From contig JABMQJ010000001.1 in assembly GCA_013203315.1 (NCBI GenBank), forward strand, positions 32,001 through 96,000: DNA of 64,000 nucleotides, written 5' to 3'. Positions within the stretch are counted from its first letter, which is position 1, and the number at the start of each line of letters is the position of its first letter. A model generated the notes under the pieces. That model did no database searches, was not told the DNA's origin, and saw only the letters and a list, made by a program, of their open reading frames with translations. Positions 32,021 to 46,718 of this stretch are shown here, one piece after another. The position numbers and the translations under genes were made by a program. This stretch comes from Candidatus Omnitrophota bacterium. GTDB taxonomy: Bacteria > Omnitrophota > Gorgyraeia > JABMRN01 > RBG-13-46-9.

Positions 32021-33013
32021 TTAAACCCTTAACGCGTTTAGTTCTTCTTCACCCATGGGTAAGACTTCGGGGTGGCCGGTACTTTTCTCTTTGCAGGTAA
32101 TTTTTAATGGTTGGTTCGGCTCCCCGTCGCTATACCTTGCGACTATACGCCCGGCCTTTAGAATAGAATCTTCGTCAAAAGCGCCTCTCCCGATGCCGGT
32201 CGGGCCGGTTGTATCTAGAGGATAAAAATGAAAATCGTTTTCCTTGGAGAGGCTTGATAGTTTCTTGTTTTCTTCATCGTTTCTGCCTACAATTAATTTG
32301 GCTTTTGTGTTTAGGCGAAAGTGCCTGCCGACTTTGAGAAGCTGCACGTCATTTATAGTGATATCGGGTTTATGTTTTAGCAAATCACGCATTCTCCTGG
32401 CAAAACCCGGATCCGTTAAAAGACATCCGCCCGCGGGACAAGGATAGTCATTGATGCCAAAGTCTTTGGCGAGTTGTATTTGCGGTTTTCTTGAGCGTCC
32501 GCTTATGGATAGGAACTTTTCCCTGTCAACCAGGCCTTCTTTTTCCGGGATGCTGGGCTCCATGAGCTTGGACGAAAGCGGCCTTACGATGAATCCCTTT
32601 AATCCGCTCTCGTTCTCTATGGTTCGCATGGCGTCTTTTCTCTGCGACATCGGGCGTTCTCCCAATACCTCTCCGGTGAAAATAAAAGAAGCGCCCGTTT
32701 GCTTCATGTACTCACCTGCTTTTCTAAATATGAATATGCGGCAGTCAAGGCACGGATTCATGTTGCTGCCGTAGCCGTGCTTGGGATTTTTGACTATCTC
32801 CAAATATTCTTTGGTTATTTCGAAGACCTTAAGAGGAACACCGAGGGTATCAGCTGCTGATTTGCTGGCAAGGCATGTTTTTCCGTGGGCAGTACAGTTG
32901 CAGAATACGGTTAAAAAGTTAAGCGCTTCTACTTCTATGCCCTGTTCCAGCATAAGCTTCGTAGCTAATATGCTGTCTAATCCCCCGGAAAGTAATGCTA
33001 TTGCTTTAGTCAT
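32021..33013 (-). CDS. ThiI/MnmA-like PP-loop tRNA thiolation protein with DUF814-like C-terminus
   Basis: SGGLDS, NPCLDCR, GEVLGERPMSQ, PAGGCLLT, GRHFR. Confidence 0.82.
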   Translation of the reverse strand: MTKAIALLSGGLDSILATKLMLEQGIEVEALNFLTVFCNCTAHGKTCLASKSAADTLGVPLKVFEITKEYLEIVKNPKHGYGSNMNPCLDCRIFIFRKAGEYMKQTGASFIFTGEVLGERPMSQRKDAMRTIENESGLKGFIVRPLSSKLMEPSIPEKEGLVDREKFLSISGRSRKPQIQLAKDFGINDYPCPAGGCLLTDPGFARRMRDLLKHKPDITINDVQLLKVGRHFRLNTKAKLIVGRNDEENKKLSSLSKENDFHFYPLDTTGPTGIGRGAFDEDSILKAGRIVARYSDGEPNQPLKITCKEKSTGHPEVLPMGEEELNALRV

Positions 33014-33087: not shown

Positions 33088-33912
33088 TTACGCTACTGCT
33101 GCTTCCAGTTTGGTAGCTGCCGGTTGCGGTTTGGTGCCGTCTTTTGAAAGCATTTTCATCGCTACCTCAGCCGCTTTTTTACCGGAAAGGAGCATTCCGC
33201 CAAAAGTCGGGCCCATGCGCGGAATTCCGTAAGCAGTGGAAACTGCCATGCCTGCTACGATAAGACCCGGAAAAATCTCGCCTGTTCTTTTCACTACTAA
33301 GTCTTCTGAAGTGTCTGCGTCCATCGGACCGAAAGTGGCCAACTTCAGCATGTGTCTTTTCTCAAGGCTTCTGCATACACAGGCGTCGTGCCCCGTAGCG
33401 TCAATTACAACCTTGGACTCCATGGAAATAGGATCAACGCAGGTGATTTGTCTTGGTAGGGCCGCTACAGGTGTCCAGTTGATAACCGCGCCCTCTACTC
33501 TTTTGTTGCGATATACAACGTCGTCAAACCTTGTCATGTTCAAGATCTTTACGCCGGCGTCGCATGCTGACGCTATGAGTTTTGAGCAGGCGTGCGGGCC
33601 ATCGGCAACTAATAAGCCGTCTTCTCTTTCCCTGTAGGGGATACCGATCTCGTCTAAAACAGTTTCTGCGGGGGATCTAAAGGTTATCGTGTTCATCAGA
33701 TAACCACCTATCCAGAAACCGCCGCCGATATAATTGTTGGCCTCTACTATGAGGGTCTTAACACCCTGTCTCGAAAGGTCCCTTCCGGCTACAAGGCCAC
33801 TTGGGCCTCCACCAACTATGATTACGTCGGAAATTATGTAGTCCTCGAACCATTTCGTGAATTCACTTACGATTGCTTTACTTATTTGCGCTTCACTTAC
33901 TTTTTTAAACAT
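33088..33912 (-). CDS. thi4: Thi4-family adenosine diphosphate thiazole synthase
   Basis: GGGPSGL, GGGFWIGG, TCVDP, DATGHD, PRMGPTFGGMLLSG; promoter TTGACA-17-TGTAAT at about 33933-33961. Confidence 0.92.
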   Translation of the reverse strand: MFKKVSEAQISKAIVSEFTKWFEDYIISDVIIVGGGPSGLVAGRDLSRQGVKTLIVEANNYIGGGFWIGGYLMNTITFRSPAETVLDEIGIPYREREDGLLVADGPHACSKLIASACDAGVKILNMTRFDDVVYRNKRVEGAVINWTPVAALPRQITCVDPISMESKVVIDATGHDACVCRSLEKRHMLKLATFGPMDADTSEDLVVKRTGEIFPGLIVAGMAVSTAYGIPRMGPTFGGMLLSGKKAAEVAMKMLSKDGTKPQPAATKLEAAVA

Positions 33913-33996
33913 ACGTACCTCCTTTTTATTATATTACACCACAGACGTGTTTACATGTCAATGATATTTCTAGAGATCCGGTTCTATTTTTTTGTA

Positions 33997-34236
33997 TTAC
34001 TCTACTATGTCTCCCAGGAGCGACTCAACCTTTATGCCTTGCCCGGTAAGATACTTGATGCCTTTTTCGAGATTTTCCTTCGTGCCCTCCAATTCGAGCG
34101 TTACCTCACCTACTGTTTCGGTTACCTTTGCCCTCCTGATGTTGGGAATTACATCGTATTTTTTGGCCATTGTAAAAATAGCAGGCTCTTTAATGAGTTT
34201 CTGCGGGAATATTAAATGCACCATTTTCTTTGGCAT
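33997..34236 (-). CDS. Stand-alone NIL domain protein
   Basis: FPQKLIKEPAI....YDV.PNIRRA.V...G...LELEG. Confidence 0.85.
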   Translation of the reverse strand: MPKKMVHLIFPQKLIKEPAIFTMAKKYDVIPNIRRAKVTETVGEVTLELEGTKENLEKGIKYLTGQGIKVESLLGDIVE

Positions 34237-34238
34237 AA

Positions 34239-35054
34239 TTACTCCTCCTTTTTCTTTTTTATACTGCAGAACTGTTCATAATCTATTAGCTTAGTTACCG
34301 TAGGTTTTTCGCCGCAAATCGGGCACTTTGGGTCTTTTGGGACCTTTACCTGGCGAAAGCTGGAGTCCAGCGCATTAAACACAAGGAGTTTTCCGGCTAA
34401 AAGATCACCTATGTTTAAAATGTATTTAAGGACCTCGTTTGCCTGGATTACACCGATTGCACCTGCAACTGCGCCGAGGATCCCTGCTTCCTGACAGCTT
34501 GGCACAAACCCCGGAGGCGGCGGTTCGGGAAATAGGCATCTGTAGCATGCGCTTTTGCCCGGTAAAATTGTTATCGCCTGGCCGTCAAACCTGAATATTC
34601 CTCCGTGGGAGAGTGGTTTCTTTTCCAGAACGCATGCATCGTTTACCAAATATCGCGTAGGAAAATTGTCCGATCCGTCTACAACGATGTCGTATTCTTT
34701 TATAACATCGGTTATATTCTTTGACGTGAGACGCATGTTTAACGCTTTTACTTTGACATCCGGATTTATGGCGTTTAATCTTTGTTTGGCAGATTCAACT
34801 TTTGCGACACCTACGGTATTCGTATCGTGCACAATTTGTCTCTGCAAATTGTTGAGCTCTACTTTATCCGAATCTACGATACCGATCGTGCCGATACCGG
34901 CTGAGGCCAGATATAAAGCGCATGGCGAGCCTAAGCCACCTGCGCCTATTATGAGAACTTTGCCTCCGAGAAGTTTTTCCTGGCCCTTTCCGCCGACTCT
35001 AGGCAATATAATTTGCCTTGAATAACGTTCTATCTGATCTTCTTTTAGGCTCAT
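34239..35054 (-). CDS. moeB: MoeB/ThiF (E1-like) sulfur-carrier adenylyltransferase
   Basis: RYSRQ, GAGGLGS, NLQRQ, DNFPTRY, CYRC, SCQEAG, CPIC. Confidence 0.9.
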
Positions 35055-35332
35055 CGACTTCCACCTGCTATTGCCGGAATTATCGAAACTTCGTCCCCGT
35101 CTTTTAAGGGTGTGGCGTCCTGTTTTAAGAAACGCACATCCTCCTCATTTACGTAGATATTTATAAATCTGCGAACCTTACCTTGGTCGTCACAGATCCT
35201 CTCTTTTATCCCGGGAAAATCTTTTTCCAGGTTCTCGATTAACTCCCCTACATTTTTACCGTTTACCTCTACTTCGGCCCTGTTGCCGGTAAGTTTTTGT
35301 AACGGTGTCGGAACTCTTACTTTTACTGCCAT
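35051..35332 (-). CDS. MoaD/CysO ubiquitin-like sulfur carrier with C-terminal extension (GG-SR)
   Basis: [12 protein letters not shown]...[16 protein letters not shown]; start moved to MAVKV. Confidence 0.9.
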
Positions 35333-35333
35333 C

Positions 35334-36572
35334 TTAAACCCCCAGTCGTTTATTTTTAGCTTTTTCAAACGCTTCCAAACTCGGTTTTATCTTGAGCGGT
35401 TTTCCTATTTTTTCCGCAACAGCTTCCTGAGTTTTTAAACCATTGCCTGTTATACACACGACAATTGATTCATTCTTCGGAATTTTTCCCTGTTCTATCA
35501 GTTTCTTTGTAACGCCAAGCGTTACGCCTCCTGCGGTTTCGGTAAATACGCCTTCGGTCTTGGCCAAAAGCTTAATCGCTTCTACTATTTCCTCGTCCGA
35601 TACGTCTTCCGCAAAACCACCCGATTCCTTTACAGTTCCGACAGCATATATGCCGTCAGCAGGATTCCCGATGGCTAAAGACTTCGCAATGGTATTTGGC
35701 TTAATAGGCTTTATGATATCCGAACCTTCTTTTATCGCGGTAACTATCGGCGCGCATCCTGTGGCCTGGGCAGCATAAATTTTTGTGTCGACTTTATCAA
35801 TCAGCCCCAGTTTCTTAAATTCGTGCAAGCCCTTCCATATTTTCGTGATAAGTGAGCCGCCCGCGCAAGGAACTACGATGTGCTTGGGCGCTTTCCATCC
35901 CAGCTGTTCGGCAATTTCATATCCGTATGTTTTCGACCCTTCGGCGTAATACGGCCTTATGTTTATGTTAACAAAGGCCCATTTATATTTTGCTGCGACT
36001 TCCGAACAAAGCCTGTTAACCTGGTCATAATTCCCTTCGACAGCCACCAAATTTGGATCATATATAAGTGTCCCTATAACCTTTCCTTTTTCAAGGTCAG
36101 CGGGTATAAATATATATCTTTCCAGGTTAGCTATGGCGGACTGCGCTGCTACTGAATTCGCAAGATTACCCGTCGAAGCGCATGCAACAGTTTTGAAACC
36201 GAATTCCTTCGCCTTTGATAGCGCTACCGCGACCACTCTATCTTTGAAGGAAAGTGTCGGGTGGTTTACAGAGTCGTCTTTTATGTAGAGTTCTTTCACG
36301 CCCAGCACCTTTTCAAGATTCCTGGCTCTTATTAAAGGTGTGTATCCTGAATTTAGACCGTCTGTAGGGTCTTTGTCTATGGGCATAAGTTCTCTATAAC
36401 GCCATAGGTTCTTGGGTCTTGACTCTATTTCCTTCCTGGTCAATATCTTCTTTATCCATTCGTAATCATAGTCCACCTCTAGCGGCCCGAAACAGTATTC
36501 GCATACATATATGGGGTCCTTCGGATAAGCCCTGCCGCATTCCCTGCACTTTAATCCTTTTACATAACTCAT
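35334..36572 (-). CDS. thrC: Threonine-synthase-like PLP enzyme
   Basis: N-terminal [38 protein letters not shown]; start moved to MSYVKG. Confidence 0.8.
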
Positions 36573-36576
36573 TTTG

Positions 36577-36816
36577 TCACCTCGATTTCCTGACAATAAG
36601 ATTCCAATACCCGTTTTTTTCTTCAACTTTTAAAATTTCGTGCCCTTCTTCCTTAGTGCTGGCCGTAACGTTCTTAATCGGCTCACCGTCGTCAAGGAGA
36701 ACCTCCAGTATCTTGCCCGCTTGCATCGATTCAAGTTTTAATTTCGTTTTTACAAAATTCATCGGGCAAGGAACGCCCTTTAAGTCTAATATCTGATCTA
36801 TTTTTATATCACTCAT
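36577..36816 (-). CDS. tusA: TusA/SirA sulfurtransferase
   Basis: LDLKGVPCPMNFVK. Confidence 0.88.
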   Translation of the reverse strand: MSDIKIDQILDLKGVPCPMNFVKTKLKLESMQAGKILEVLLDDGEPIKNVTASTKEEGHEILKVEEKNGYWNLIVRKSR

Positions 36817-37703
36817 AAAATCTTGTCCTTTGCTTTCTTAAGCCCTGTCCTGTCCAGCGCTTCTCCAAATCGCTCACCCTTGTTTGCTATTTCTTTATAG
36901 TACTCGACTGATTTTTCTATGATTTTGGGGATCTTTTTTTCCTCTACAAACTCTGCTATTTCAGTTCCGAATCGAGGAAAACGTCCCACCTTACCGCCTA
37001 TGTAAACCTTAAAACCGACTTTCTTTGTTTTCCAGGCGCTTACCGGGCATACCCTCACACAATCCCCTTCGAAGTAACAATTTTCTTTTCTGTACACGGG
37101 TTTTTTGTCTTTATCCATTACAATAGCCGGTTGCCCTTTTCCCCTTGCGCAGACTTTTTCACAAACCTTTGCGCAAAGCGTACAGTGTATGCACGCATCA
37201 AGATCTACTTCGGGTTCGCCCTGCGCCTGGAATCCCAAATCGTTCTCCTGCGGCTTGGCGCAAGAATTCATGCAGCCTGTAATTGCTACTTTGAATTTTT
37301 TGGGAACCTCTTTGCCAAACGCGACTTTATCAAGTTTCATAGCCAACTTTTCAGCATCAACAAAACCAAATCTACATACGCTCGACCCCGGACAGGCAAT
37401 GAGGTTTCTGGATCTCGGGCCGCATGCGCCTTTTAATATTCCGAACTTCTTCATATCTTTGAGTAAACTATTTATATTTTTTATGTGTATCCACGGAATT
37501 TCTATCCCCTGCCGGGTCGAGACGTGGACATAATCTTTGCCGTATTTTTTGGCAAGTATGGCGTATTTTTTTAGTTTTTCCGCTTTTAAATGCCCGCCGG
37601 GAATTCTTGTACGCAGGATAAAATAATCCTTTTGTATTTGTTTCAAGACCCCGCCGGTTCTCAGATCCAAAAGTTCTGTTTCATTGTATTTTTTTAATGC
37701 CAT
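36813..37703 (-). CDS. Small siroheme-[4Fe-4S] sulfite/nitrite reductase with ferredoxin domain
   Basis: STRQGIE, CPGSSVC (CX5C), GCMNSC (CX3C), CIHCTLC, GGKVGR. Confidence 0.85.
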   Translation of the reverse strand: MALKKYNETELLDLRTGGVLKQIQKDYFILRTRIPGGHLKAEKLKKYAILAKKYGKDYVHVSTRQGIEIPWIHIKNINSLLKDMKKFGILKGACGPRSRNLIACPGSSVCRFGFVDAEKLAMKLDKVAFGKEVPKKFKVAITGCMNSCAKPQENDLGFQAQGEPEVDLDACIHCTLCAKVCEKVCARGKGQPAIVMDKDKKPVYRKENCYFEGDCVRVCPVSAWKTKKVGFKVYIGGKVGRFPRFGTEIAEFVEEKKIPKIIEKSVEYYKEIANKGERFGEALDRTGLKKAKDKIL

Positions 37704-37715
37704 CTCTTTGTCTCC

Positions 37716-38858
37716 TTAGGCCCCAAAATACCTTTCCATCGAAAAGTATCTCTCACCCGTATCGGGTAAAATTGTAACTACAAGTTTATCTTTTCCCAAC
37801 TTTTTAGCGACCTCAAGCGCCGCCCAGACTGCCGCACCTGCGGATATCCCCACAAACAATCCTTCGAGTGTGGCAAGCTTTCTTGAGGTTGTAAAAGCAT
37901 CGTCGTCATTTACCTGTATTATTTCATCAATCACTTTTTTATTAAGGACATCCGGAATAAATCCGGCGCCGATACCCTGTATTTTATGTGGACCGGGCTT
38001 CCCGCCGGATAATACTGGGCTCGCCTTTGGTTCAACAGCAATAATTTTAACTTCCGGATATTCTTTTTTTAATGCTTCTCCTACACCTGTTATGGTCCCG
38101 CCCGTCCCAACGCCGGAAACAAAGGCGTCTATCTTTTTATCAACTGCCTCAAGTATTTCTTGAGCGGTTGTATCTCTATGAGCCTGCGGGTTTGCCTTAT
38201 TTTTAAACTGCTGAGGCATAAAGCTATTCGGTGTTTTCTTAAGAAGCTGTTCGGCTTTTTTTATGGAGCCCTGCATCCCCTCTGCGCCCGGGGTAAGAAC
38301 TACTTGTGCGCCAAAAGACTTAAGTATGTAAATTCTTTCGAGACTCATGGTTTCAGGCATTGTAAGAATGCATTTATAACCCTTTACAGCAGATACCATG
38401 GCAAGGCCAATTCCGGTATTCCCGCTTGTCGGTTCAATTATGGTTGCACCTTTTTTCAGGAGGCCCTTACGCTCGGCGTCTTCTACCATCGAAAGGCATA
38501 TCCTGTCTTTAACACTGCCGCCGGGATTATAAAATTCAAGTTTTCCAAAAATATCCGCCATGCCGGGCTCGACAATATTATTCAGCTTGACCATGGGGGT
38601 GTTGCCTATCAATTCTAATATATTGCGCGCCGCTTTTCGGCCGCCTTTTTCACAGCCGCCGCCCATGAAATATACAAATTCCAGCTTGTCATTGGTTTTA
38701 AGCGAGGTGTCGCTGTATTTACCTCTCTCTATAATCTTCTCGTTTAATTCGACCGTAACGACTTCCGGCTTTATATTCTTGTCCGCCAGGAGCTCGGCAA
38801 CGCTCATGTCATCGCCGATTTCTTCCTTTTTGCCATTTAAATAGATTGTCGTCATCAT
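37716..38858 (-). CDS. cysK: ThiS-family sulfur carrier fused to cysteine synthase CysK
   Basis: ThiS domain ending FMGGG, linker CEKGGRKA, then IGNTP, NPGGSVKDR, EPTSGNTG, GVGTGGT, HKIQGIGAG. Confidence 0.88.
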   Translation of the reverse strand: MMTTIYLNGKKEEIGDDMSVAELLADKNIKPEVVTVELNEKIIERGKYSDTSLKTNDKLEFVYFMGGGCEKGGRKAARNILELIGNTPMVKLNNIVEPGMADIFGKLEFYNPGGSVKDRICLSMVEDAERKGLLKKGATIIEPTSGNTGIGLAMVSAVKGYKCILTMPETMSLERIYILKSFGAQVVLTPGAEGMQGSIKKAEQLLKKTPNSFMPQQFKNKANPQAHRDTTAQEILEAVDKKIDAFVSGVGTGGTITGVGEALKKEYPEVKIIAVEPKASPVLSGGKPGPHKIQGIGAGFIPDVLNKKVIDEIIQVNDDDAFTTSRKLATLEGLFVGISAGAAVWAALEVAKKLGKDKLVVTILPDTGERYFSMERYFGA

Positions 38859-38870
38859 CCCGATACCTCC

Positions 38871-40154
38871 TTATTTTTTTAAAACCTCACTGATTACTTC
38901 CAAAGTTTTCTCTATGTCCCCCTTGCTGTGCGCAAGGGATAAGAAATTCGCTTCAAATCCGGACGGAGAAAAATATATACCTTGTTTCAATAAGCCGTGA
39001 AAAAATCTTTTAAATGAATCCGTATCTTGTTTTTTCGCGGTCCTGTAGTCTACGACAGCCTCATTTGTAAAAAATACGCTAAACATTGAACCGACGCGGT
39101 TTACTCTAAGGGCTATTTTGTCCGCAGCGGCTATTTTTTCTATTCCCTCACATAATTCTTCGGTTTTGTTTTTCAGTTCTGCGTAAGGATTTTTTTCTTT
39201 CAATATATTTAAAGTTGTGATGCCAGCTTTTACGGCTATGGGGTTACCTGATAATGTCCCCGCCTGGTAAACACCACCCTGGGGCGCCAGAAGCGATATA
39301 ACATCTTTCCTGCCGCCAAAAGCGCCTACCGGCAGTCCGCCTCCTATGATCTTTCCGAGGCAGGTTATATCCGGTATTATACCAAAAAGTGCCTGTGCGC
39401 CACCATATAAATACCGAAATCCGGTAATAACCTCATCAAATATTAAAAGTGCACCATGTTGATCAGCTATTTTTCTTAACCCTTTAAGGAAACCCGCCTC
39501 CGGAGGAATGACGCCACAATTTCCGGCTACAGGTTCAACAATTATGGCGGCCAAATCTTCTTTGTACTTTTCGGCTATTTTTTCCGTTTCCTCGATATCA
39601 TTGTAAGGCGCTACAATCGTGTGCTTGGTAAAGTCTTTCGGCACTCCTAGACTATCGGGCATGCTAAGCGTAGCAGCACCGGATCCTGATTTTACCAAAA
39701 GATAGTCCGCGTGGCCGTGATATGCGCCTTCGAATTTTATAATTTTGTTTCTTTTGGTATAGCCCCTTGCAAGTCTTATAGCACTCATTACCGCTTCTGT
39801 GCCGGAGCTGGTAAGCCTCACCTGTTCGACCGAAGGGATCGCTTCAACAATAAGTCGCGCCAACTCTGTCTCTTTTGTAGTGGCCGCACCGAAGCTCGTC
39901 CCATCTTTTACGGCTTTTTCAAGCGCCTTTGTTACTTCCGGATACGCGTGGCCGAGTATCATAGTGCCCCATGAAAGGCAATAGTCGATGAATTCGCCGC
40001 CGCACTCACCGTAAAGCTTTGAGCCGCTGCCGCGCTTTACGAACACGGGATAGCCGCCGACAGCCTTGAAAGATCTTACGGGGCTATTTACGCCACCCGG
40101 GATGAATCTCTTGGCATCATTTAATAAATCTTTCGCGATTCCTACCCCAGCCAT
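38871..40154 (-). CDS. hemL: Glutamate-1-semialdehyde 2,1-aminomutase
   Basis: PGGVNSPVR, YHGHAD, FDEVITGFR, GKIIGGGLP, YQAGTLSGNP. Confidence 0.95.
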   Translation of the reverse strand: MAGVGIAKDLLNDAKRFIPGGVNSPVRSFKAVGGYPVFVKRGSGSKLYGECGGEFIDYCLSWGTMILGHAYPEVTKALEKAVKDGTSFGAATTKETELARLIVEAIPSVEQVRLTSSGTEAVMSAIRLARGYTKRNKIIKFEGAYHGHADYLLVKSGSGAATLSMPDSLGVPKDFTKHTIVAPYNDIEETEKIAEKYKEDLAAIIVEPVAGNCGVIPPEAGFLKGLRKIADQHGALLIFDEVITGFRYLYGGAQALFGIIPDITCLGKIIGGGLPVGAFGGRKDVISLLAPQGGVYQAGTLSGNPIAVKAGITTLNILKEKNPYAELKNKTEELCEGIEKIAAADKIALRVNRVGSMFSVFFTNEAVVDYRTAKKQDTDSFKRFFHGLLKQGIYFSPSGFEANFLSLAHSKGDIEKTLEVISEVLKK

Positions 40155-41065
40155 TTTATAACCTCTTTTCCGAAATAAGTTATTATACGATCCGCACCTG
40201 CTCTTTTCATAGAAGTTAGCGCCTCCAGCACAAGTTCTTTTTCCTTGGCACTGTCTCCATCGGCAAGTTTTTTAATCATGGTATATTCTCCGCTTACGCT
40301 GAAAGCGGCTATTGGTGTCTTAAATTTTTTCTTTGCTTTGTAAAGGATGTCCAGGTACGCAAGTGCGGGTTTAACCATGACGAGATCCGCACCTTCTTTA
40401 ATATCCTCTTCTATTTTCGCTAAACCCCGATCGGTGTTTCTGGGGTCCAGTTGATAACTCGTTCTATCCCCAAACTTGGGCGACGAATTAAGCGCCTCTC
40501 TAAACGGCCCATAGAAATTAGACGCGTACTTGGCTGAATAAGCCAGTATCTTTGTGGATTTGAAGCCTTCGCAGTCTAAGGCGTGTCTTATCACCGCGAC
40601 TTGGCCGTCCATCACAGCAGAAGGCGCAACAAAATCCGCCCCTGCCCTAGCGTGTGAGACGGCAATTTTAGCCAGCGTCTCCAATGTAGCTTTTTTATCT
40701 ACGGCCAGCTTCGCTTTTTGCTTTCCTTTTTTTAATATCCTGCAATGCCCGTGAGAGGTATAAGCGCAAAGGCAAACATCCGTAACAACTTTTAAGTTTT
40801 TGAATTCTTTCTTTATTGCCCTTATGGCTTTCTGGATGAGGCCGAATTCATGATAAGCGGCAGAAGCTGTATCGTTTTTTGTTTTGGACACGCCAAAAAG
40901 AAGCACCTCTTCGATGCCCCGGGCCGATCTTATGTCCTTGATCAAGTTATCGACAGAAAAGTGATAAATACCGGGCATCGAACGGATAGGCCGCTTCACA
41001 TCCTTACCACCAACAACAAAATAAGGAGTAATTATGTCTTTTTTCTTTAGTTTAAAAGTCCGCAT
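40142..41065 (-). CDS. hemB: Porphobilinogen synthase
   Basis: DVCLCAYTSHGHC, YSAKYAS.FYGPFR, MVKP, SVSGEY; start moved to MRTFK. Confidence 0.93.
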   Translation of the reverse strand: MRTFKLKKKDIITPYFVVGGKDVKRPIRSMPGIYHFSVDNLIKDIRSARGIEEVLLFGVSKTKNDTASAAYHEFGLIQKAIRAIKKEFKNLKVVTDVCLCAYTSHGHCRILKKGKQKAKLAVDKKATLETLAKIAVSHARAGADFVAPSAVMDGQVAVIRHALDCEGFKSTKILAYSAKYASNFYGPFREALNSSPKFGDRTSYQLDPRNTDRGLAKIEEDIKEGADLVMVKPALAYLDILYKAKKKFKTPIAAFSVSGEYTMIKKLADGDSAKEKELVLEALTSMKRAGADRIITYFGKEVIKWLG

Positions 41066-42450
41066 CGTTTCGCCTCTTTTAGTGTCACGCGACCTATGCA
41101 TCTAATCTTTACGGCCTTGGGCACTTTCTTATATCTTTTTTTGAAACTTCTCACCGTTGACGGGCTCGTAAACATTATCTCGTCGAAATTCGTAATATCA
41201 AGATCCGGAAGATTATCCGGTATTGTATTTTTGTAAGCTACGCATGGAAAAATCGTGGCGCCTTCTTTTTTTAATCCCTCGGTCAGGCCCTTGTCAGCAA
41301 TATCCGAACGCGGTAACAAAATATTCTTTTTGATAAGATTTATTTTTTTCAGTTCCGCAAGCAACCCCTTCGAAGATTCGTCCTTCGGGACAAGATCCGG
41401 AAATACGCCGAACTCTTTTAATTTTTCGGCAGTAGAGTTTCCGATAGCGGCAACCTTGATACCCCCCATTTTACGGGTGTCGAGCCTGAGTTTAAACAGC
41501 CGCTCGAAGAAGTAGAGCGCGGCGTAACGGCTCGTAAAGACAATCCAATCAAAAGCTTTAAGTTTTCTTATAAGCTCGTCAAGCTTTGTATAATCTTTTA
41601 GAGGTTTTATTTCAATAAGCGGAAGATGAAAAATTAAACCCTTCTCATAAGGCCTGTGATTTGAGAGTCCCGTGAAAAGAATTTTCCTGGATTTTTTAAA
41701 CCAGCCAAATTCTTTTTCTTTCCTCACCACTTCGCCGATTATAATAATTGCGGGCGCTTTTATATTTTCTTTTTTGACAATAGCGCCTATATACTTTAAT
41801 CTGCCGGTTACTGTCCTTTGGTTTATTTTCGAAACGTTGGAAATAACGGCAACGCTTGTGTTTTTGTTTTTGCCTTTTGAGATAAGCGTATCCGCGATCC
41901 GGGAAATGCTTCCTACTGCCATGTATAAAACAATCGTTCCACCTTTTGCAAGCTCATCCCAATTGATAGAGCTTTTTTTCTTTTTAGGGTCCTCATGCCC
42001 GGTAACAAATGCAACGCTTGAAGCGAAACCCTTTGACGTAAGCGGAATACCACTATAACAGGCTGCCGCTTGAGCTGCGGTAACTCCGGGAATCACGGAA
42101 AACTCTATTCCTTTCTTGATTAAACCCCTGATTTCTTCAGTGGCCCTGCCAAAGACAAAAGGATCTCCGTTTTTTAGCCTCATTACATTTTTACCCTTTT
42201 GGGCCCTATCTACAAGCAGCTTGTTTATCAAATTCTGCCTTTTGGAAAATCCGTCGCTATGACGGACCCTGTCCAGTTTATCGGCGCATACGAGTTCTGA
42301 GGCGGGGTTTGCGTATTGCAAAACCCTCTTATCTACAAGCCGGTCGTATACAATAACATCGGCCTGCTTAAGAGCCTCTAGGCCCTTGACCGTGATCAAA
42401 TCCGGCTCGCCGGGCCCTGCGCCTGCTAAAAAAACTTTACCCTTTTTCAT
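41047..42450 (-). CDS. cobA: Uroporphyrinogen-III C-methyltransferase / uroporphyrinogen-III synthase fusion (CobA-HemD)
   Basis: GAGPGEPDLIT, YDRL, RLKNGDPFVFGR, VTGH; C-terminal FTS..AIG..FTSPSTV. Confidence 0.92.
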   Translation of the reverse strand: MKKGKVFLAGAGPGEPDLITVKGLEALKQADVIVYDRLVDKRVLQYANPASELVCADKLDRVRHSDGFSKRQNLINKLLVDRAQKGKNVMRLKNGDPFVFGRATEEIRGLIKKGIEFSVIPGVTAAQAAACYSGIPLTSKGFASSVAFVTGHEDPKKKKSSINWDELAKGGTIVLYMAVGSISRIADTLISKGKNKNTSVAVISNVSKINQRTVTGRLKYIGAIVKKENIKAPAIIIIGEVVRKEKEFGWFKKSRKILFTGLSNHRPYEKGLIFHLPLIEIKPLKDYTKLDELIRKLKAFDWIVFTSRYAALYFFERLFKLRLDTRKMGGIKVAAIGNSTAEKLKEFGVFPDLVPKDESSKGLLAELKKINLIKKNILLPRSDIADKGLTEGLKKEGATIFPCVAYKNTIPDNLPDLDITNFDEIMFTSPSTVRSFKKRYKKVPKAVKIRCIGRVTLKEAKRCGLLN

Positions 42451-43127
42451 ATTACAGCCGTTTCTCTTGAATCTATTTTTGAGAGAATTTCTATTAAGTC
42501 AGAATCCTCCGCCCTTGCGATAACTGCAAGACGCCCCTGCAAGGGGTGCGGCTCAAGTATATGTGGCGGTAAAATTTCGGTTATTCTTTCTTCTAATCCC
42601 AGACGAATCAAGCCTGCAGCGGCTATTACTATGGCATTTAAGCTTGTTGTTTCCAATATCTTAAGTCTTTCCTGGATATTACCCCGGATATCTACAAGCT
42701 CAAAATCCGGCCTGAATTTCTTCAATGCCTCTTTACGGCGAATGCTGCTTGTCCCGATCCGCGCGCCAAATGGTAGACTATCTAACTTTAATCCATCTCT
42801 TGAAACTAAAACATCGTACGGATCGATCGATTCCGTAAGCGCTGCTATGTGAAACCCCTCCGCTAAAACAAAAGGCACGTCTTTTGCGCTATGCACGGCA
42901 AAATCAATTTCACCTAAAAGAAGCGCCTGATCTATCTCTTTTGTAAAGAAGTCCTCACCTTCTATATACGATATGGGTGTGAACTTATCTTTGTCGCCGC
43001 AGGTATCTATACCCACTATTTCGGCTTTAAGGGACGTTCCTGCGTCATTTAAAGCATTTAAAATTTCTTCTACCTGCTTTAACGCGAGAGGACTAGTTCT
43101 GGTTCCGATTTTGTAAGTTTTCGCCAT
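42447..43127 (-). CDS. hemC: Hydroxymethylbilane synthase, C-terminally short
   Basis: IGTRTSPLAL.Q, FTKE, AVHSAKD, GTSSIRR, IRGN, AAAGL.RL. Confidence 0.88.
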   Translation of the reverse strand: MAKTYKIGTRTSPLALKQVEEILNALNDAGTSLKAEIVGIDTCGDKDKFTPISYIEGEDFFTKEIDQALLLGEIDFAVHSAKDVPFVLAEGFHIAALTESIDPYDVLVSRDGLKLDSLPFGARIGTSSIRRKEALKKFRPDFELVDIRGNIQERLKILETTSLNAIVIAAAGLIRLGLEERITEILPPHILEPHPLQGRLAVIARAEDSDLIEILSKIDSRETAVI

Positions 43128-44110
43128 ACTGTACCTGCTTCTATATCTATAATTTGTCTTACTTTTTTTGCGATTTCTGTTTTCTTTTCTATATTTTCTT
43201 TAATCACAGTATCCAAGTCTTCCAGGCCGAATAAATCTACGTTTTCGATTCTTTTTACCTCGGGATCAACGTCCCTTGGTAAGGCAAGATCTATTATTAA
43301 TAGTTTCCCGTTTTGCTTCTCTTTGAAGGTTTCTTTCTTGATTATAAAATGCGGGCTGGCGGTAGCCGTTATAACGATATCCGCCTTACCCAGTGATTCT
43401 CTTAGGTTATCAAATCTTACCGCCTGCGCCCCGATCTGGGAAGCAAACTCTCGTGCCCTGGAAAAGGTCCTATTTGATACGAAAACTACAGAGGCCCTTT
43501 CTTTTTCCAGGTATTTCAAAACAAGTTCCGTAACCTTCCCTACCCCTATGATCAAAATTATTTTATTTTCCAGCCGGCCTATTTTTTTCTTTATAAAGTC
43601 TATGGCCACGCTTCCCACCGATACTTTCCCCTCGGATATCTTCGTCGTCGCATGCATGTCCTTGGCAAAGAAGAACGCAGAATTAAATACGCCGTCTAAT
43701 AGCTTATCCGTAAAACCAATGCTTTGACTTTTTAAAAAGGAGGCCCTAACCTGGCCCAGCACTTGTGTTTCGCCGAGTATAAGAGAATCAGTTCCACTCG
43801 CAACTGAGAACAAATGCTTTAACGCTCCCTCGTCCGCATACCTATATAGGTAAGGCGAGATACTTTCTTTATCGATTTGGTGATACCGTGAAATAAAGTC
43901 TTCCAATTCCCATAGCCCCTTATCTTTATTGTCTGTGCTTGCATAAATCTCTGTTCTATTACACGTCGAGATTATAATAGCTCCGTTTAAACCGGTGTTT
44001 TCCTTTAAAAAAGAGATCTCATCCCTTACCCGCTTTTTGGAAAAAGCGATTCTTTCCCTGAACTCTACCGGACTATATTTATGGTTTGTTCCTACTAATA
44101 TGAGATTCAC
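43079..44110 (-). CDS. hemA: Glutamyl-tRNA reductase
   Basis: STCNRTE, DSLILGE.QVLGQV, DLALPRD. Confidence 0.93.
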   Translation of the reverse strand: MNLILVGTNHKYSPVEFRERIAFSKKRVRDEISFLKENTGLNGAIIISTCNRTEIYASTDNKDKGLWELEDFISRYHQIDKESISPYLYRYADEGALKHLFSVASGTDSLILGETQVLGQVRASFLKSQSIGFTDKLLDGVFNSAFFFAKDMHATTKISEGKVSVGSVAIDFIKKKIGRLENKIILIIGVGKVTELVLKYLEKERASVVFVSNRTFSRAREFASQIGAQAVRFDNLRESLGKADIVITATASPHFIIKKETFKEKQNGKLLIIDLALPRDVDPEVKRIENVDLFGLEDLDTVIKENIEKKTEIAKKVRQIIDIEAGTVWRKLTKSEPELVLSR

Positions 44111-44550
44111 TTTATTTCTATTTCCTCTTCGGTGATCTTGCCTTCTACGATCTTAAATGATCTTACGCTTGGACTTGCCTCATCCTTTATTGAAACTATC
44201 ACGTATGACGAGTCAGGATAGTAGGCCAGCTTCACATCATGCGACGAAGGAAAGGCTTCTGTTTCTAAATGTGAGTGGTATATGCCAACCATTTCCAGGC
44301 CCAGGGTTCTTATCTCTTTGGTGACTTTAAGCTGTTCTTTAGGGTCCATTAAAAATGTCTGTCCGCTGTTGTCCGCATTGGCCATAAGATATATCTTCGT
44401 TACTTTTGATATCCGCCGAAGCCTACCTGCTGCGAATTTCTCCTCTGGCGTAGGCGGACCGGCAAGTATACCGCAAGCCTCGCTGGGGGCCTCTTTCTTT
44501 GAATACTCCACTAAATCATCTATATGCTTCCGGCTTAAAGAAATCATCAC
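44107..44550 (-). CDS. Mov34/MPN/JAMM metalloprotease (Mec/CysO-peptidase-like) with an in-frame insertion
   Basis: EACGILAG, IYHSH....FPS..D JAMM motif. Confidence 0.9.
   Translation of the reverse strand: MMISLSRKHIDDLVEYSKKEAPSEACGILAGPPTPEEKFAAGRLRRISKVTKIYLMANADNSGQTFLMDPKEQLKVTKEIRTLGLEMVGIYHSHLETEAFPSSHDVKLAYYPDSSYVIVSIKDEASPSVRSFKIVEGKITEEEIEIK
44412..44458. repeat. Palindromic element inserted in frame in the JAMM gene
   Basis: TCCGCCGAAGCC ... GGCGTAGGCGGA hairpin ends. Confidence 0.7.
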
Positions 44551-44558
44551 AGGGCTCC

Positions 44559-45524
44559 TTAAATCTTGTCAAGTACTGCTGTCAGTAAAAATGATATGAT
44601 AAGCGCAATAATCGGTGTCACGATCCAGGTCATATATGTTTTTCTTGTTACAGGGTTAGTAAATGTTGTCTTATGTCCGTTTTTTAGACCTCCTACGGCA
44701 AACAGACAAGCCACTTTGATCATTACAAAGGACTGCGGCACACCTAAGAGAGAGGCCACTATCATAAGCGTTCCGGTAACAAGGCATACAATCGTCGCCG
44801 ATAAAACGCCTAACGGCACTATTTTTTCGCCCGCGGTCTTAAGCGAGCCATGGAATACAAGGCTTCCTAACCCAAAAATAGGCGCGATTAAAATAAGTCC
44901 GAGCGTTGTACTTAAAATTCCGGCCCCGGAAAGCGGACCCACGACATTGGCTACATTATTCGCGCCCACTGAAAAGGCGTTATAGCAACTTGCAATTATC
45001 ACGAATAGTTTCAACCTATCGGTGTGATTAACCAGTTTTTCATAGATCCAGAAATTATTATTTTTCGGCGGATATACGACTTTTCCCAAAAGATATGTTA
45101 AGAAATAGCCTAAAACCGGCAAAAGTACCCAAAAAGGCACCAGGTATAATAAGGTTTTGGTGTATACACTCCTGTAATACAGACCCACACCTAATATAGA
45201 TGCGACCGTAACCAGGCTCGTGGACTGTGGCACATGCAATCTATTCGCCACAAATAAACTGAGCGTCGCTGAAATCAAAATCACGAGGATAACGTTAATC
45301 CCCATAAGCTCATGCGGAATGATCTTATTGCCCAAAGTCTCTGAAACAGGCTTACCTATAAGAACAGCCCCTAGAAAGACAAATATAGCAAAAAGAATCT
45401 GCGCCCGAGCTCTGGTGATAATTTTGCCACCGTGCGCGGCGGCAAAAGAAGCGCCAAAGTTGCTTCCGCCCATATTAAGAGCGAAAAGAATAGCCAGTAT
45501 TGCTAAAACGATATAGTGTGCCAA
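44559..45524 (-). CDS. PiT-family anion permease (probable CysP-like sulfate permease)
   Basis: NMGGSN, GANNVAN, P.S.S motifs; sulfur-operon context. Confidence 0.8.
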   Translation of the reverse strand: MAHYIVLAILAILFALNMGGSNFGASFAAAHGGKIITRARAQILFAIFVFLGAVLIGKPVSETLGNKIIPHELMGINVILVILISATLSLFVANRLHVPQSTSLVTVASILGVGLYYRSVYTKTLLYLVPFWVLLPVLGYFLTYLLGKVVYPPKNNNFWIYEKLVNHTDRLKLFVIIASCYNAFSVGANNVANVVGPLSGAGILSTTLGLILIAPIFGLGSLVFHGSLKTAGEKIVPLGVLSATIVCLVTGTLMIVASLLGVPQSFVMIKVACLFAVGGLKNGHKTTFTNPVTRKTYMTWIVTPIIALIISFLLTAVLDKI

Positions 45525-45545
45525 GTATTGCCTCTTCTAGATACC

Positions 45546-46268
45546 TTAGATGCCGTCGCCGCCAATATTTTTAAGGGGTCTGGTGTGAATACCGCATTCA
45601 CCGCCGCATTTGCTCGTGCCGATCCAGCGGCCCGCGCGCTCATCGTCTTCAACTGTAATTTTTGTGCAGGGCGCGCAGCCCAATGAACGGTACCCTAACC
45701 CATAGAGAGGATTTACTTTTACTTCGTTAAGCGCCAGATACTCCCAGACCTCTCTTTCCTTCCAGATAAGAATCGGATTTAATTTTACAAGGCCCTTGTC
45801 CCGCTCCTCTACCTCTTTAAAGTCTGTACGAGTTCTGCCTTCGGTGCAACGCAGGCCCGTAATCCAGCATGTTACCTTCATCTCTTCTACGGCTTTTCTT
45901 GTGGGCTCTACCTTTAATATATCGCAGCACTTATCAGGTTTAGTTTCGTAAAGCTTATCCGGTATTTCAACGTCATTTTTGTAAACCTTGAGCTCCGGGA
46001 ACCTGGCAACTTCTTCATTCATAAATTTAATGGTTGCCTTTGGTTTATAGCGCGTAGTTACTATAAAGCCTCTTATCTTGGGGTTTACTTTTCTTGCAAG
46101 ATCCCAAATAGCAACGGAATCTTTCCCCAGGCTATTGGCCACCACAAGCCCATCACCGTATTTCTTATACGCTTCTTCGATAAGCGCAAGCGACCTTTCA
46201 ACTTTTTCTTTAAAATTCAGCGTGTCGACTAGTTTTTTTAGATCATCGTTGTTCTTCAATATGCTCAC
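45546..46268 (-). CDS. cysH: APS/PAPS reductase (thioredoxin-type)
   Basis: SLGKDS, CCDILKVEP, WITGLR, YRSLGCAPCT, ERAGRW, ECGIH. Confidence 0.88.
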   Translation of the reverse strand: MSILKNNDDLKKLVDTLNFKEKVERSLALIEEAYKKYGDGLVVANSLGKDSVAIWDLARKVNPKIRGFIVTTRYKPKATIKFMNEEVARFPELKVYKNDVEIPDKLYETKPDKCCDILKVEPTRKAVEEMKVTCWITGLRCTEGRTRTDFKEVEERDKGLVKLNPILIWKEREVWEYLALNEVKVNPLYGLGYRSLGCAPCTKITVEDDERAGRWIGTSKCGGECGIHTRPLKNIGGDGI

Positions 46269-46295
46269 TTTCTTTTCCTCCTTTACAATACATCG

Positions 46296-46718
46296 TTATA
46301 TTTGGTAAGCAAATGCTCCCCTTTTTCCTTTGGACCTCTCCGCTATATCTTCAAAAGTGACTTTATCCAGTATTTTGGCTATAGCGCCATCGACCTCATC
46401 CCAAATCGCCGCAAATACAGATTCTCTTTTTGCAACTGATTTGGACGCAGTTAAAAGAGGGCCTCCTATCCGGCGCATCACTTCGCCCAGCGTTATTTCA
46501 TTCGGAGGCTTGGCCAGGTTATACCCGCCGTCCTTACCTCTTATGCTCGAGACCTGACCCATTCTTTTGAGTTGAATTAGAATTTGTACCAAGTATCTAA
46601 TAGGTATACTCTGTCTATCGGATATAGTGTGAATTTGTAGCGGCGCATCCCCCGGCCAATGCAGTGATAGCTCCAAAAGCGCCTTACATGCATAGTCACA
46701 TCTTGCTGAAATTCTCAT
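46296..46718 (-). CDS. Rrf2-family regulator without an Fe-S Cys triad (CymR-like)
   Basis: YL.QIL..LKR.G.V.S.RG..GGY.LA.PP..IT.G.V. Confidence 0.88.
   Translation of the reverse strand: MRISARCDYACKALLELSLHWPGDAPLQIHTISDRQSIPIRYLVQILIQLKRMGQVSSIRGKDGGYNLAKPPNEITLGEVMRRIGGPLLTASKSVAKRESVFAAIWDEVDGAIAKILDKVTFEDIAERSKGKRGAFAYQI

Follow-up and report, generated by a model that had tools for sequence, protein, structure and literature searches.

A conserved internal diglycine joins a ThiS-type sulfur carrier to CysK in Omnitrophota: a candidate ubiquitin-style precursor

We analysed a 64,000-nucleotide stretch of DNA (the window) from an uncultured freshwater bacterium (Candidatus Omnitrophota), in which one open reading frame (ORF) on the minus strand encodes a ThiS-type sulfur carrier followed by the cysteine synthase CysK. 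The frame is continuous and conserved, and the diglycine of the carrier lies inside the chain. ThiS-type carriers need a free C-terminal Gly-Gly (GG), because thiocarboxylate formation in ThiS/MoaD chemistry requires a free carboxylate. The primary translation product lacks such a terminus, its diglycine being at residues 67-68 of 380, and the need for one is the strongest argument for processing. We consider it probable that a JAMM protease cuts after G68 and that the freed ThiS is adenylated, thiocarboxylated and used to feed CysK, as in the CysO/CysM/Mec system and the MoaD-MoaE fusion cut by DR0402; the cleavage itself is a prediction. The elements concerned are as follows.

37716..38858, minus strand: ThiS-CysK fusion ORF, 380 residues in one frame; architecture kept in 120 of 120 listed relatives
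38655..38858, minus strand: ThiS (CysO-like) beta-grasp carrier domain, residues 1-68, ending MGGG (TIGR01683); AlphaFold2 predicted local distance difference test (pLDDT) 83-94 over residues 1-60
38655..38663, minus strand: codons of G66-G67-G68, the predicted cut after G68 falling between bases 38655 and 38654; from conservation in 103 fusions
38628..38654, minus strand: linker, residues 69-77 (9 residues), variable among relatives and predicted to be flexible
37716..38627, minus strand: CysK domain of the O-acetylserine sulfhydrylase A (OASS-A) type, residues 78-380, plus stop (TIGR01139)
44107..44550, minus strand: JAMM/MPN+ metalloprotease, predicted maturase and adduct hydrolase (PF14464, 78.1 bits)

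Results

ThiS and CysK are encoded in one continuous frame

Both halves of the fusion are complete. The carrier matches Pfam ThiS (PF02597) over residues 10-68 with 45.6 bits (cut-off 22.5) and NCBIfam thiS (TIGR01683) over residues 5-68 with 68.8 bits (cut-off 37.45), model positions 1-64 of 64 being covered. The enzyme matches PALP (PF00291) over residues 81-366 with 260.9 bits and NCBIfam cysK (TIGR01139) over residues 81-375 with 468.6 bits (cut-off 350.95), which corresponds to full-length CysK, and the residues S115, K117, D118 and R119 of its SVKDR motif, which holds the lysine for pyridoxal phosphate (PLP), are invariant in 103 fusions. A GGAGG ribosome-binding site lies directly ahead of the ORF, and the junction, EFVYFMGGGCEKGGRKAARNILELIGNTP, contains no stop codon. 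The first methionine past the junction, M89, already falls within the conserved CysK core, so that no plausible separate start for CysK exists. The sequence-only reading, which had described one continuous frame with neither a stop nor a separate CysK start, was accurate to the base.

That reading had also proposed a search for such fusions in related genomes and a read check at the junction. PF02597 together with PF00291 was found in all of the 120 best relatives listed among 8000 scored (71-100% identity), and when the ThiS part alone served as the query, all 99 recovered proteins (209-665 residues) had the same ThiS and PALP architecture. The named sources of the relatives are all Omnitrophota/Omnitrophica or plain "bacterium". 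Logan contigs from four runs of one freshwater study, three of which may represent the source sample, cover 38300-38900 with no difference, and the fourth run bridges 38550-38805 on its own contig. Both checks therefore came out in favour of the fusion.

The database names of the fusion proteins are only "cysteine synthase A" or "ThiS, partial", which hides the carrier from pathway reconstruction. In two 514-residue proteins, P0175 and P0177, DUF454, ThiS and PALP occur in one prediction, either as a triple fusion or as an over-extended gene call.

The diglycine is invariant and the linker is variable

Across the 103 aligned fusions, M65, G67 and G68 are invariant and G66 is present in at least 90%, one sequence reading MCGG; the GG conservation asked about in the sequence-only reading is thus complete. 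The segment from the glycine run to the conserved N-terminal helix of CysK, parsed in 80 of the 103 fusions, ranges from 3 to 17 residues and measures 8 residues in 41 of the 80. Its first residue takes 13 different identities (S in 20, E in 17, M in 12, Q in 7, C in 5, L in 5, A in 4, and others).

The same reading had offered, as an alternative to cleavage, that a cysteine directly after GGG tethers or regulates CysK. This was rejected, since cysteine occupies the position in 3 of 21 sequences and in 5 of the 80 parsed junctions.

The most frequent linker pattern is [S/M/L]-PFSDR-[I/V]-A. The stand-alone CysK of the split relative G105 begins with PFSDRIA led by methionine, and 12 fusions retain a methionine straight after GGG. 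On these grounds the fusion looks like the plain loss of a stop codon and spacer.

The AlphaFold2 model, computed from the 103-row alignment (mean pLDDT 87.7, predicted template modelling score 0.76), consists of two confident domains with residues 64-73 below a pLDDT of 50. Because the GG is invariant, the linker varies in length and sequence, and residues 64-73 are predicted to be disordered, conservation and model together fit a junction kept as a processing site rather than as a hinge of fixed geometry.

Fused and split forms interchange on the CysK tree

An uninterrupted ThiS-CysK fusion occurs in at least 13 of the 301 Omnitrophota genomes searched, from 12 different families; this is a lower bound, because it was counted from 150 listed matches and 212 weaker ones were unlisted. 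Three relatives carry the two genes apart. The thiS of G105 has no stop of its own, reads 24 codons through a 66-base spacer and ends inside cysK. That of G234 ends GGGGYAF, four residues past GGG, and overlaps the cysK start codon, and that of G209 ends GGGA, one residue past GGG. The spacer in G105 (L025:9692-9772, minus strand) carries 7-base units in a short tandem repeat, along with a Shine-Dalgarno site for cysK, and may be an inserted element.

A maximum-likelihood tree built from 23 CysK domains sets the operon-linked clade apart from a second paralogue with support of 100/100. Within it, the split G105 and G234 are nested among fused sequences (89/85), and the unfused G209 is the sister of the fused G085 and G047 (98/94). 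Because split forms nest among or pair with fused ones, fusion and fission have each happened more than once, and judged from this tree the two forms are interchangeable. Repeated fusion and fission with both halves kept would be expected of a chain that is in any case destined to become two proteins.

A single JAMM protease accompanies the fusion in all 13 genomes found

The ORF at 44107-44550 is the only PF14464 match, and thus the only JAMM, in the genome. The sequence-only reading had placed it in the operon of the fusion, and it does share the strand of the fusion, 5.2 kb upstream of it, within an unbroken, gap-free string of genes. Its metal-site motif, E..HSH-x7-S-xx-D, is intact, as it is at all 19 of the fetched loci that have a JAMM match, and its matches among solved structures include 2kks (86.8 bits) and PfJAMM1 (39 bits).

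A JAMM of 78-97 bits is encoded in 13 of 13 fusion genomes, compared with 110 of the 301 Omnitrophota genomes above the cut-off (37%), a contrast that is overstated in that the 13 are kin and not independent. In 12 of the 13 it is upstream of the fusion and shares its contig and strand, the exception being G263, where it is on another small contig. In G085 and G047, which lack the haem genes inserted in the window, it directly adjoins the fusion, giving the mycobacterial mec-cysO-cysM order.

The carrier belongs to a subfamily that bears C-terminal tails

Residues 1-110 were compared with 1.84 billion cluster representatives (50% clusters). There were 2464 matches, and among the best 150, on which the following counts rest, 147 align as far as G68, all with GG (147 of 147). 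Only 5 of the 118 MGGG-type carriers end at GGG, the others having tails of 1-10 residues (63), 11-40 residues (37) or more than 40 residues (13); the short tails end at real stops, whereas some of the long ones are perhaps truncated gene calls on short contigs, which tells somewhat against their weight here. Among VGGG-type carriers, by contrast, the chain stops at GGG in 9 of 19. CysK fusions, one as a full-length representative and the rest as fragments, are among the long extensions. No ThiS-CysK fusion was seen outside Omnitrophota among named sources, the cluster library itself being nameless.

From these tails, we infer that the fusion is one extreme of a habit, in this carrier subfamily, of bearing arbitrary C-terminal tails that a JAMM removes. 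We advance more tentatively, and with slightly less than even confidence, the wider idea that MGGG carriers are indifferent to where the stop codon falls, with JAMM as an obligatory maturase, so that fusion to and fission from a client would be near-neutral and recurrent, as a bacterial metabolic counterpart of ubiquitin-precursor processing. If so, either a read-through spacer or a whole enzyme (CysK, MetY or TusA, and NIL for the MoaD-like carrier) would be tolerated after the diglycine, and the family might give a picture of how ubiquitin fusion genes arose.

Other partners also occur. ThiS-GGG-TusA fusions (P0193, P0195 and P0233, 129-147 residues) were confirmed by Pfam. The proteins P0235 and P0312 appear by eye to be followed by N-terminal pieces of a MetY-like enzyme, Pfam having seen ThiS only. 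In G237 (L029:3868-5340, plus strand), a 490-residue protein joins ThiS to a full Cys_Met_Meta_PP (MetY-like) enzyme, and in its relative G195 (L027:3493-4966, plus strand) the same ThiS ends six residues past GGG and overlaps the metY start. The genes there run in the order CysK, ThiS/MetY, E1, JAMM and sulfite reductase. With MetY fused to a related ThiS or overlapping it in these genomes, carriers may pair with the adjacent PLP-dependent sulfhydrylase.

Discussion

Relation to known systems

Linear fusions of a carrier to its own client are known from molybdenum cofactor (Moco) synthesis. In D. radiodurans, the stand-alone JAMM protein DR0402 cleaves the natural MoaD-MoaE fusion DR2607 and exposes the C-terminal glycine, and cyclic pyranopterin monophosphate accumulates without DR0402 (PMC8832034). 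The M. tuberculosis protein MoaX is cleaved between Gly82 and Ser83, and neither cleavage nor function survives the G81A substitution (PMC4326299). As in those proteins, the carrier here is N-terminal to its own putative client and contains an internal, conserved GG; cleavage at the GG is needed for activity there, and the protease for DR2607 is a stand-alone JAMM. The present case differs in combining a ThiS-type carrier with a PLP-dependent cysteine synthase in amino-acid sulfur assimilation, instead of MoaD with MoaE in Moco synthesis, and in that cleavage is here predicted. The features expected of a JAMM-processed linear fusion, namely an N-terminal carrier, an internal GG and a JAMM in every fusion genome, were all found.

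The gene set of carrier, JAMM, PLP-dependent sulfhydrylase and E1 resembles that of the CysO/CysM/Mec+/MoeZ system of M. tuberculosis, whose protein-thiocarboxylate mechanism of cysteine synthesis was reportedly described by Burns and colleagues in 2005, and the position of the JAMM matches in G085 and G047. By analogy, the JAMM would hydrolyse the bond after GG in each cycle. In contrast to that system, the enzyme is a canonical CysK and not a CysM, the E1 is without a rhodanese domain, the carrier, being fused, would require maturation, and CysE is present.

Carriers with residues past the GG also have precedents. In Wolinella, the carrier precursor HcyS-Ala occurs with the JAMM protein HcyD. 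QbsD may trim QbsE-GG-CF, and CxnF has been proposed to trim CxnE-GG plus 10 residues, according to the chuangxinmycin paper (PMC5925218). These three pairs share with the present case the extra residues past GG, the JAMM encoded in the cluster, and operons that also contain sulfite reductase and TusA/SirA. The difference is one of scale, since the tails there have 1-10 residues and the tail here is a whole 312-residue enzyme.

Eukaryotic ubiquitin precursors are fusions of ubiquitin to ribosomal proteins. The likeness to them is that an N-terminal ubiquitin-like protein (Ubl) would be freed after GG by a dedicated peptidase to give equimolar products; it is an analogy only, since the partner here is a metabolic enzyme using the Ubl as a sulfur donor and there is no E2 or E3.

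Iyer, Burroughs and Aravind (2006) described sulfur-metabolism Ubl operons, and in their classes 4c-4e, as here, ThiS/MoaD, JAB, E1, SirA/TusA, phosphoadenosine phosphosulfate (PAPS) reductase, sulfite reductase and sulfhydrylase share one neighbourhood (PMC1779556). The fusions given in the available part of that paper are ThiS-ThiG, MoaD-MoaE, ThiS-sulfite reductase and Ubl-ThiF, with no ThiS-cysteine synthase among them (PMC1779556). A ThiS-cysteine synthase fusion was likewise not found described in the full-text literature searched, most subscription journals lying outside that search. Most likely, therefore, the ThiS-CysK pairing is new to the literature, whereas its putative cleavage mechanism has already been demonstrated for molybdenum-cofactor enzymes and its operon type is known.

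A proposed route from precursor to cysteine

In the route we favour, the 380-residue protein would be a precursor in which the JAMM cuts the peptide bond after G68, within the flexible linker. The products, in equal amounts, would be a 68-residue carrier whose Gly-Gly carboxylate is free and a CysK whose N-terminus is near-native. By analogy with CysO/CysM/Mec of M. tuberculosis and HcyS of Wolinella, the single E1 (34239-35054) would adenylate the freed carrier, and the thiocarboxylate would be made with sulfide from the adjoining small sulfite reductase or with TusA persulfide. CysK could then join the carrier thiocarboxylate to the aminoacrylate derived from O-acetylserine, and after an S-to-N acyl shift the same JAMM would hydrolyse the carrier-GG-Cys adduct, releasing cysteine and recycling the carrier.

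The gene content of the genome, which is 97% complete, bears on several of these steps. It comprises one JAMM, one ThiF-family E1, two ThiS-family domains, one CysK (the fusion) and one CysE (240 bits, cut-off 210.65). With one E1 and two carriers, the only possible substrates of the E1 are the two carriers of the operon, and the presence of CysE points to O-acetylserine rather than O-phosphoserine as the substrate of CysK. No MoaE was found in this genome and no real ThiG either, the sole ThiG match being a partial one (29 bits, model positions 165-229) in an unrelated 430-residue TIM-barrel ORF. The fused ThiS is therefore left without a thiamin or Moco client of these kinds.

Several points weigh against this route, besides the kinship of the 13 fusion genomes. 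By its profile scores, the CysK domain is a canonical OASS-A and not of the CysM type: both cysM models fall under their cut-offs (291.5 and 283.3 bits vs 394.2 and 413), the top relatives in the PDB are canonical CysK enzymes (2egu, 402 bits; M. tuberculosis CysK1, 2q3b, 373 bits), and CysM of M. tuberculosis is absent among the 60 best PDB matches. We know of no CysK-type enzyme for which acceptance of a protein thiocarboxylate has been demonstrated, and the sulfur-transfer step is for that reason the weakest. A rhodanese domain like that of MoeZ is missing from the E1, which scores 338.1 bits against a cut-off of 647 with the MoeZ model NF005902 and covers only model positions 15-276 of 392, and the sulfur donor is accordingly uncertain. 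In the window, five haem genes separate the JAMM from the fusion. The split relatives also have a JAMM, so that its co-occurrence is not specific to the fused state, and the protease is needed anyway for the tail of the second carrier and for adduct hydrolysis.

The sequence-only reading had proposed that the JAMM releases carrier and CysK from the fusion. This is partly supported, by the invariant GG, the disordered linker, the JAMM in 13 of 13 fusion genomes, the split forms, the lone E1 and the precedents; on the other side stand the non-specific co-occurrence and the predicted nature of the cleavage.

Alternative explanations

The first alternative accepts the cleavage and differs about its purpose: ThiS would mainly feed Thi4, the PP-loop ThiI-like enzyme or TusA relays, CysK would use free sulfide, and the fusion would only secure co-expression. 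It draws on the ordinary OASS-A character of the CysK domain and on the presence, downstream of the fusion, of Thi4 (33088-33912) and the ThiI-like PP-loop protein (32021-33013). It is also supported by a preprint in which an Omnitrophica Thi4 complements E. coli better with ThiS and ThiF and may take its sulfur from ThiS-thiocarboxylate (10.1101/2025.09.23.678117). Against it, thiS stands directly 5' of the operon-linked cysK clade whether fused or split, even in loci without a visible Thi4 (L023, L024), and ThiS is fused to or overlaps MetY in G237 and G195. In addition, a full-length Thi4 is present in only 3 of 10 other fusion genomes tested, the remaining 7 (94-100% complete) giving only partial matches of at most 33 bits, and Thi4 as an obligatory client of ThiS was rejected on this count. 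We regard this alternative as unlikely.

Rather less probable is a fusion that stays uncut, its ThiS fold being a permanent docking, regulatory or solubility module of CysK (for the E1, the sulfite reductase or Rrf2) with no thiocarboxylate chemistry. Beta-grasp domains do serve as non-catalytic modules in many proteins (PMC1779556), and cleavage is here a prediction. An invariant GG beside a hypervariable linker would be unexpected for a mere hinge, however, and the cysteine after GGG is confined to 5 of 80 parsed junctions. Natural fission events retain both halves, the sole E1 of the genome would be left with one substrate, and MoaD-MoaE fusions, which are analogous, show no activity before they are cut (PMC4326299, PMC8832034).

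Cleavage after GG by an agent other than the JAMM, such as a housekeeping protease or autoproteolysis, seems very improbable. PMC4326299 leaves the protease for MoaX unnamed, and the JAMM is not adjacent to the fusion in the window. Conversely, each genome has one JAMM, which keeps its synteny in 12 of 13 fusion genomes and adjoins the fusion in two, and DR0402 and HvJAMM1 cleave linear carrier fusions (PMC8832034).

Finally, an assembly or sequencing error (a frameshift artefact) that erased a stop between thiS and cysK can be dismissed: although the split G234 differs from the fused form by just a small frame change in a G-rich run, all 120 listed relatives, of many sources, are fused, the contigs of four runs show no difference, and 13 genomes of 12 families carry the fusion.

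Should the JAMM indeed cut after G68, cysteine synthesis across a candidate phylum would start with ubiquitin-style precursor processing, and JAMM proteases would be general maturases of bacterial sulfur carriers, beyond their role as adduct hydrolases. For the study of a bacterial JAMM, the fusion is a clean and testable substrate. A further question is whether an ordinary CysK can draw sulfur from a protein thiocarboxylate, which would extend thiocarboxylate-dependent amino-acid synthesis beyond the specialised mycobacterial CysM.

The second carrier and its partner

The other features of the operon are listed below.

44559..46718, minus strand: operon head with CysP-type sulfate permease, CysH (PAPS or adenosine phosphosulfate reductase) and Rrf2, by NCBIfam
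46296-46718, minus strand: Rrf2 regulator; best specific match CymR, 84.3 bits (cut-off 195, not reached)
38871..44110, minus strand: hemA, hemC, cobA/hemD, hemB and hemL, tetrapyrrole genes for siroheme precursors; hemL by Aminotran_3
36813..37703, minus strand: small siroheme/4Fe-4S sulfite reductase, AsrC-like; NIR_SIR 104.1 bits, NIR_SIR_ferr 61.2 bits, TIGR02912 154.5 bits (below cut-off)
36577..36816, minus strand: TusA sulfurtransferase, PF01206 82.6 bits
35334..36626, minus strand: ThrC-like PLP enzyme with N-terminal zinc ribbon, MetM-like candidate homocysteine synthase; PALP 236.7 bits and a zinc-ribbon match, thrC TIGR00260 305.6 bits
35051..35368, minus strand: second carrier, MoaD/SAMP-like, ending AGG with a two-residue tail, SR; PF02597 69.7 bits, TIGR01687 57.6 bits (cut-off 49.5)
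34239..35054, minus strand: E1-like adenylyltransferase of MoeB/UbaA type, 271 residues; PF00899 283.5 bits, NF004281 MoeB 291.2 (cut-off 266)
33088..34236, minus strand: operon tail with NIL-domain protein and Thi4 thiazole synthase, by profile matches
33088-33912, minus strand: Thi4 thiazole synthase, last gene of the operon

The gene for the second carrier overlaps that for the ThrC-like enzyme (window 35051-36626), and a NIL-domain protein (33997-34236) is kept beside this pair. The pair resembles the MetM/MetO part of the thiocarboxylate route to homocysteine in Streptomyces; the MetM/MetO/Mec/MoeZ route is listed in Table 2 of GapMind 2026 (PMC13759103). The same E1 and JAMM may thus serve the second carrier (GG plus SR) and its ThrC-like partner in a MetM/MetO-type route to homocysteine.

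Of the 15 listed relatives of the second carrier, 4 stop directly after AIAGG, 5 have 1-2 further residues and 1 has 6, 3 continue into a NIL domain and 2 into a longer extension. The three in-frame fusions of a MoaD-like carrier to NIL (L023:4875-5405, plus strand, G085; L031:4864-5412, minus strand, G209; L024:5341-5886, minus strand, G047; Pfam ThiS and NIL) have a linker of 5-17 residues after AIAGG, another internal diglycine that would have to be trimmed.

Operon context

The genes follow one another on the same strand without a gap in the order Rrf2, CysH, CysP-type permease, JAMM, hemA, hemC, cobA/hemD, hemB, hemL and ThiS-CysK, and past the fusion come the small sulfite reductase, TusA, the ThrC-like enzyme, the MoaD/SAMP-like carrier, the E1, the NIL protein and Thi4. 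The best promoter-like site, with 11 of 12 matches, lies ahead of Rrf2 (46813-46785), and the strongest terminator-like hairpin lies after Thi4 (33065-33025), each as a consensus match only.

CymR of B. subtilis acts in a complex with CysK, and a CymR-like role had been suggested for the Rrf2 protein. An Rrf2 gene does head the operon, with CymR as its best specific match; the score, 84.3 bits, is under the cut-off of 195.

The names hemA, hemC, cobA/hemD and hemB rest on ORF sequence and synteny rather than on a family scan. The order of the hem genes is repeated in 8 relatives (L014-L021), and the five genes presumably supply siroheme for the small sulfite reductase at 36813-37703.

Just past the terminator-like hairpin, at 32021-33013, a PP-loop domain like those of ThiI and tRNA methyltransferases is fused to an NFACT-R RNA-binding domain. 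This protein could be a tRNA-thiolation client of the carriers, and a homologue stands beside CysK and Rrf2 in G259 (L028).

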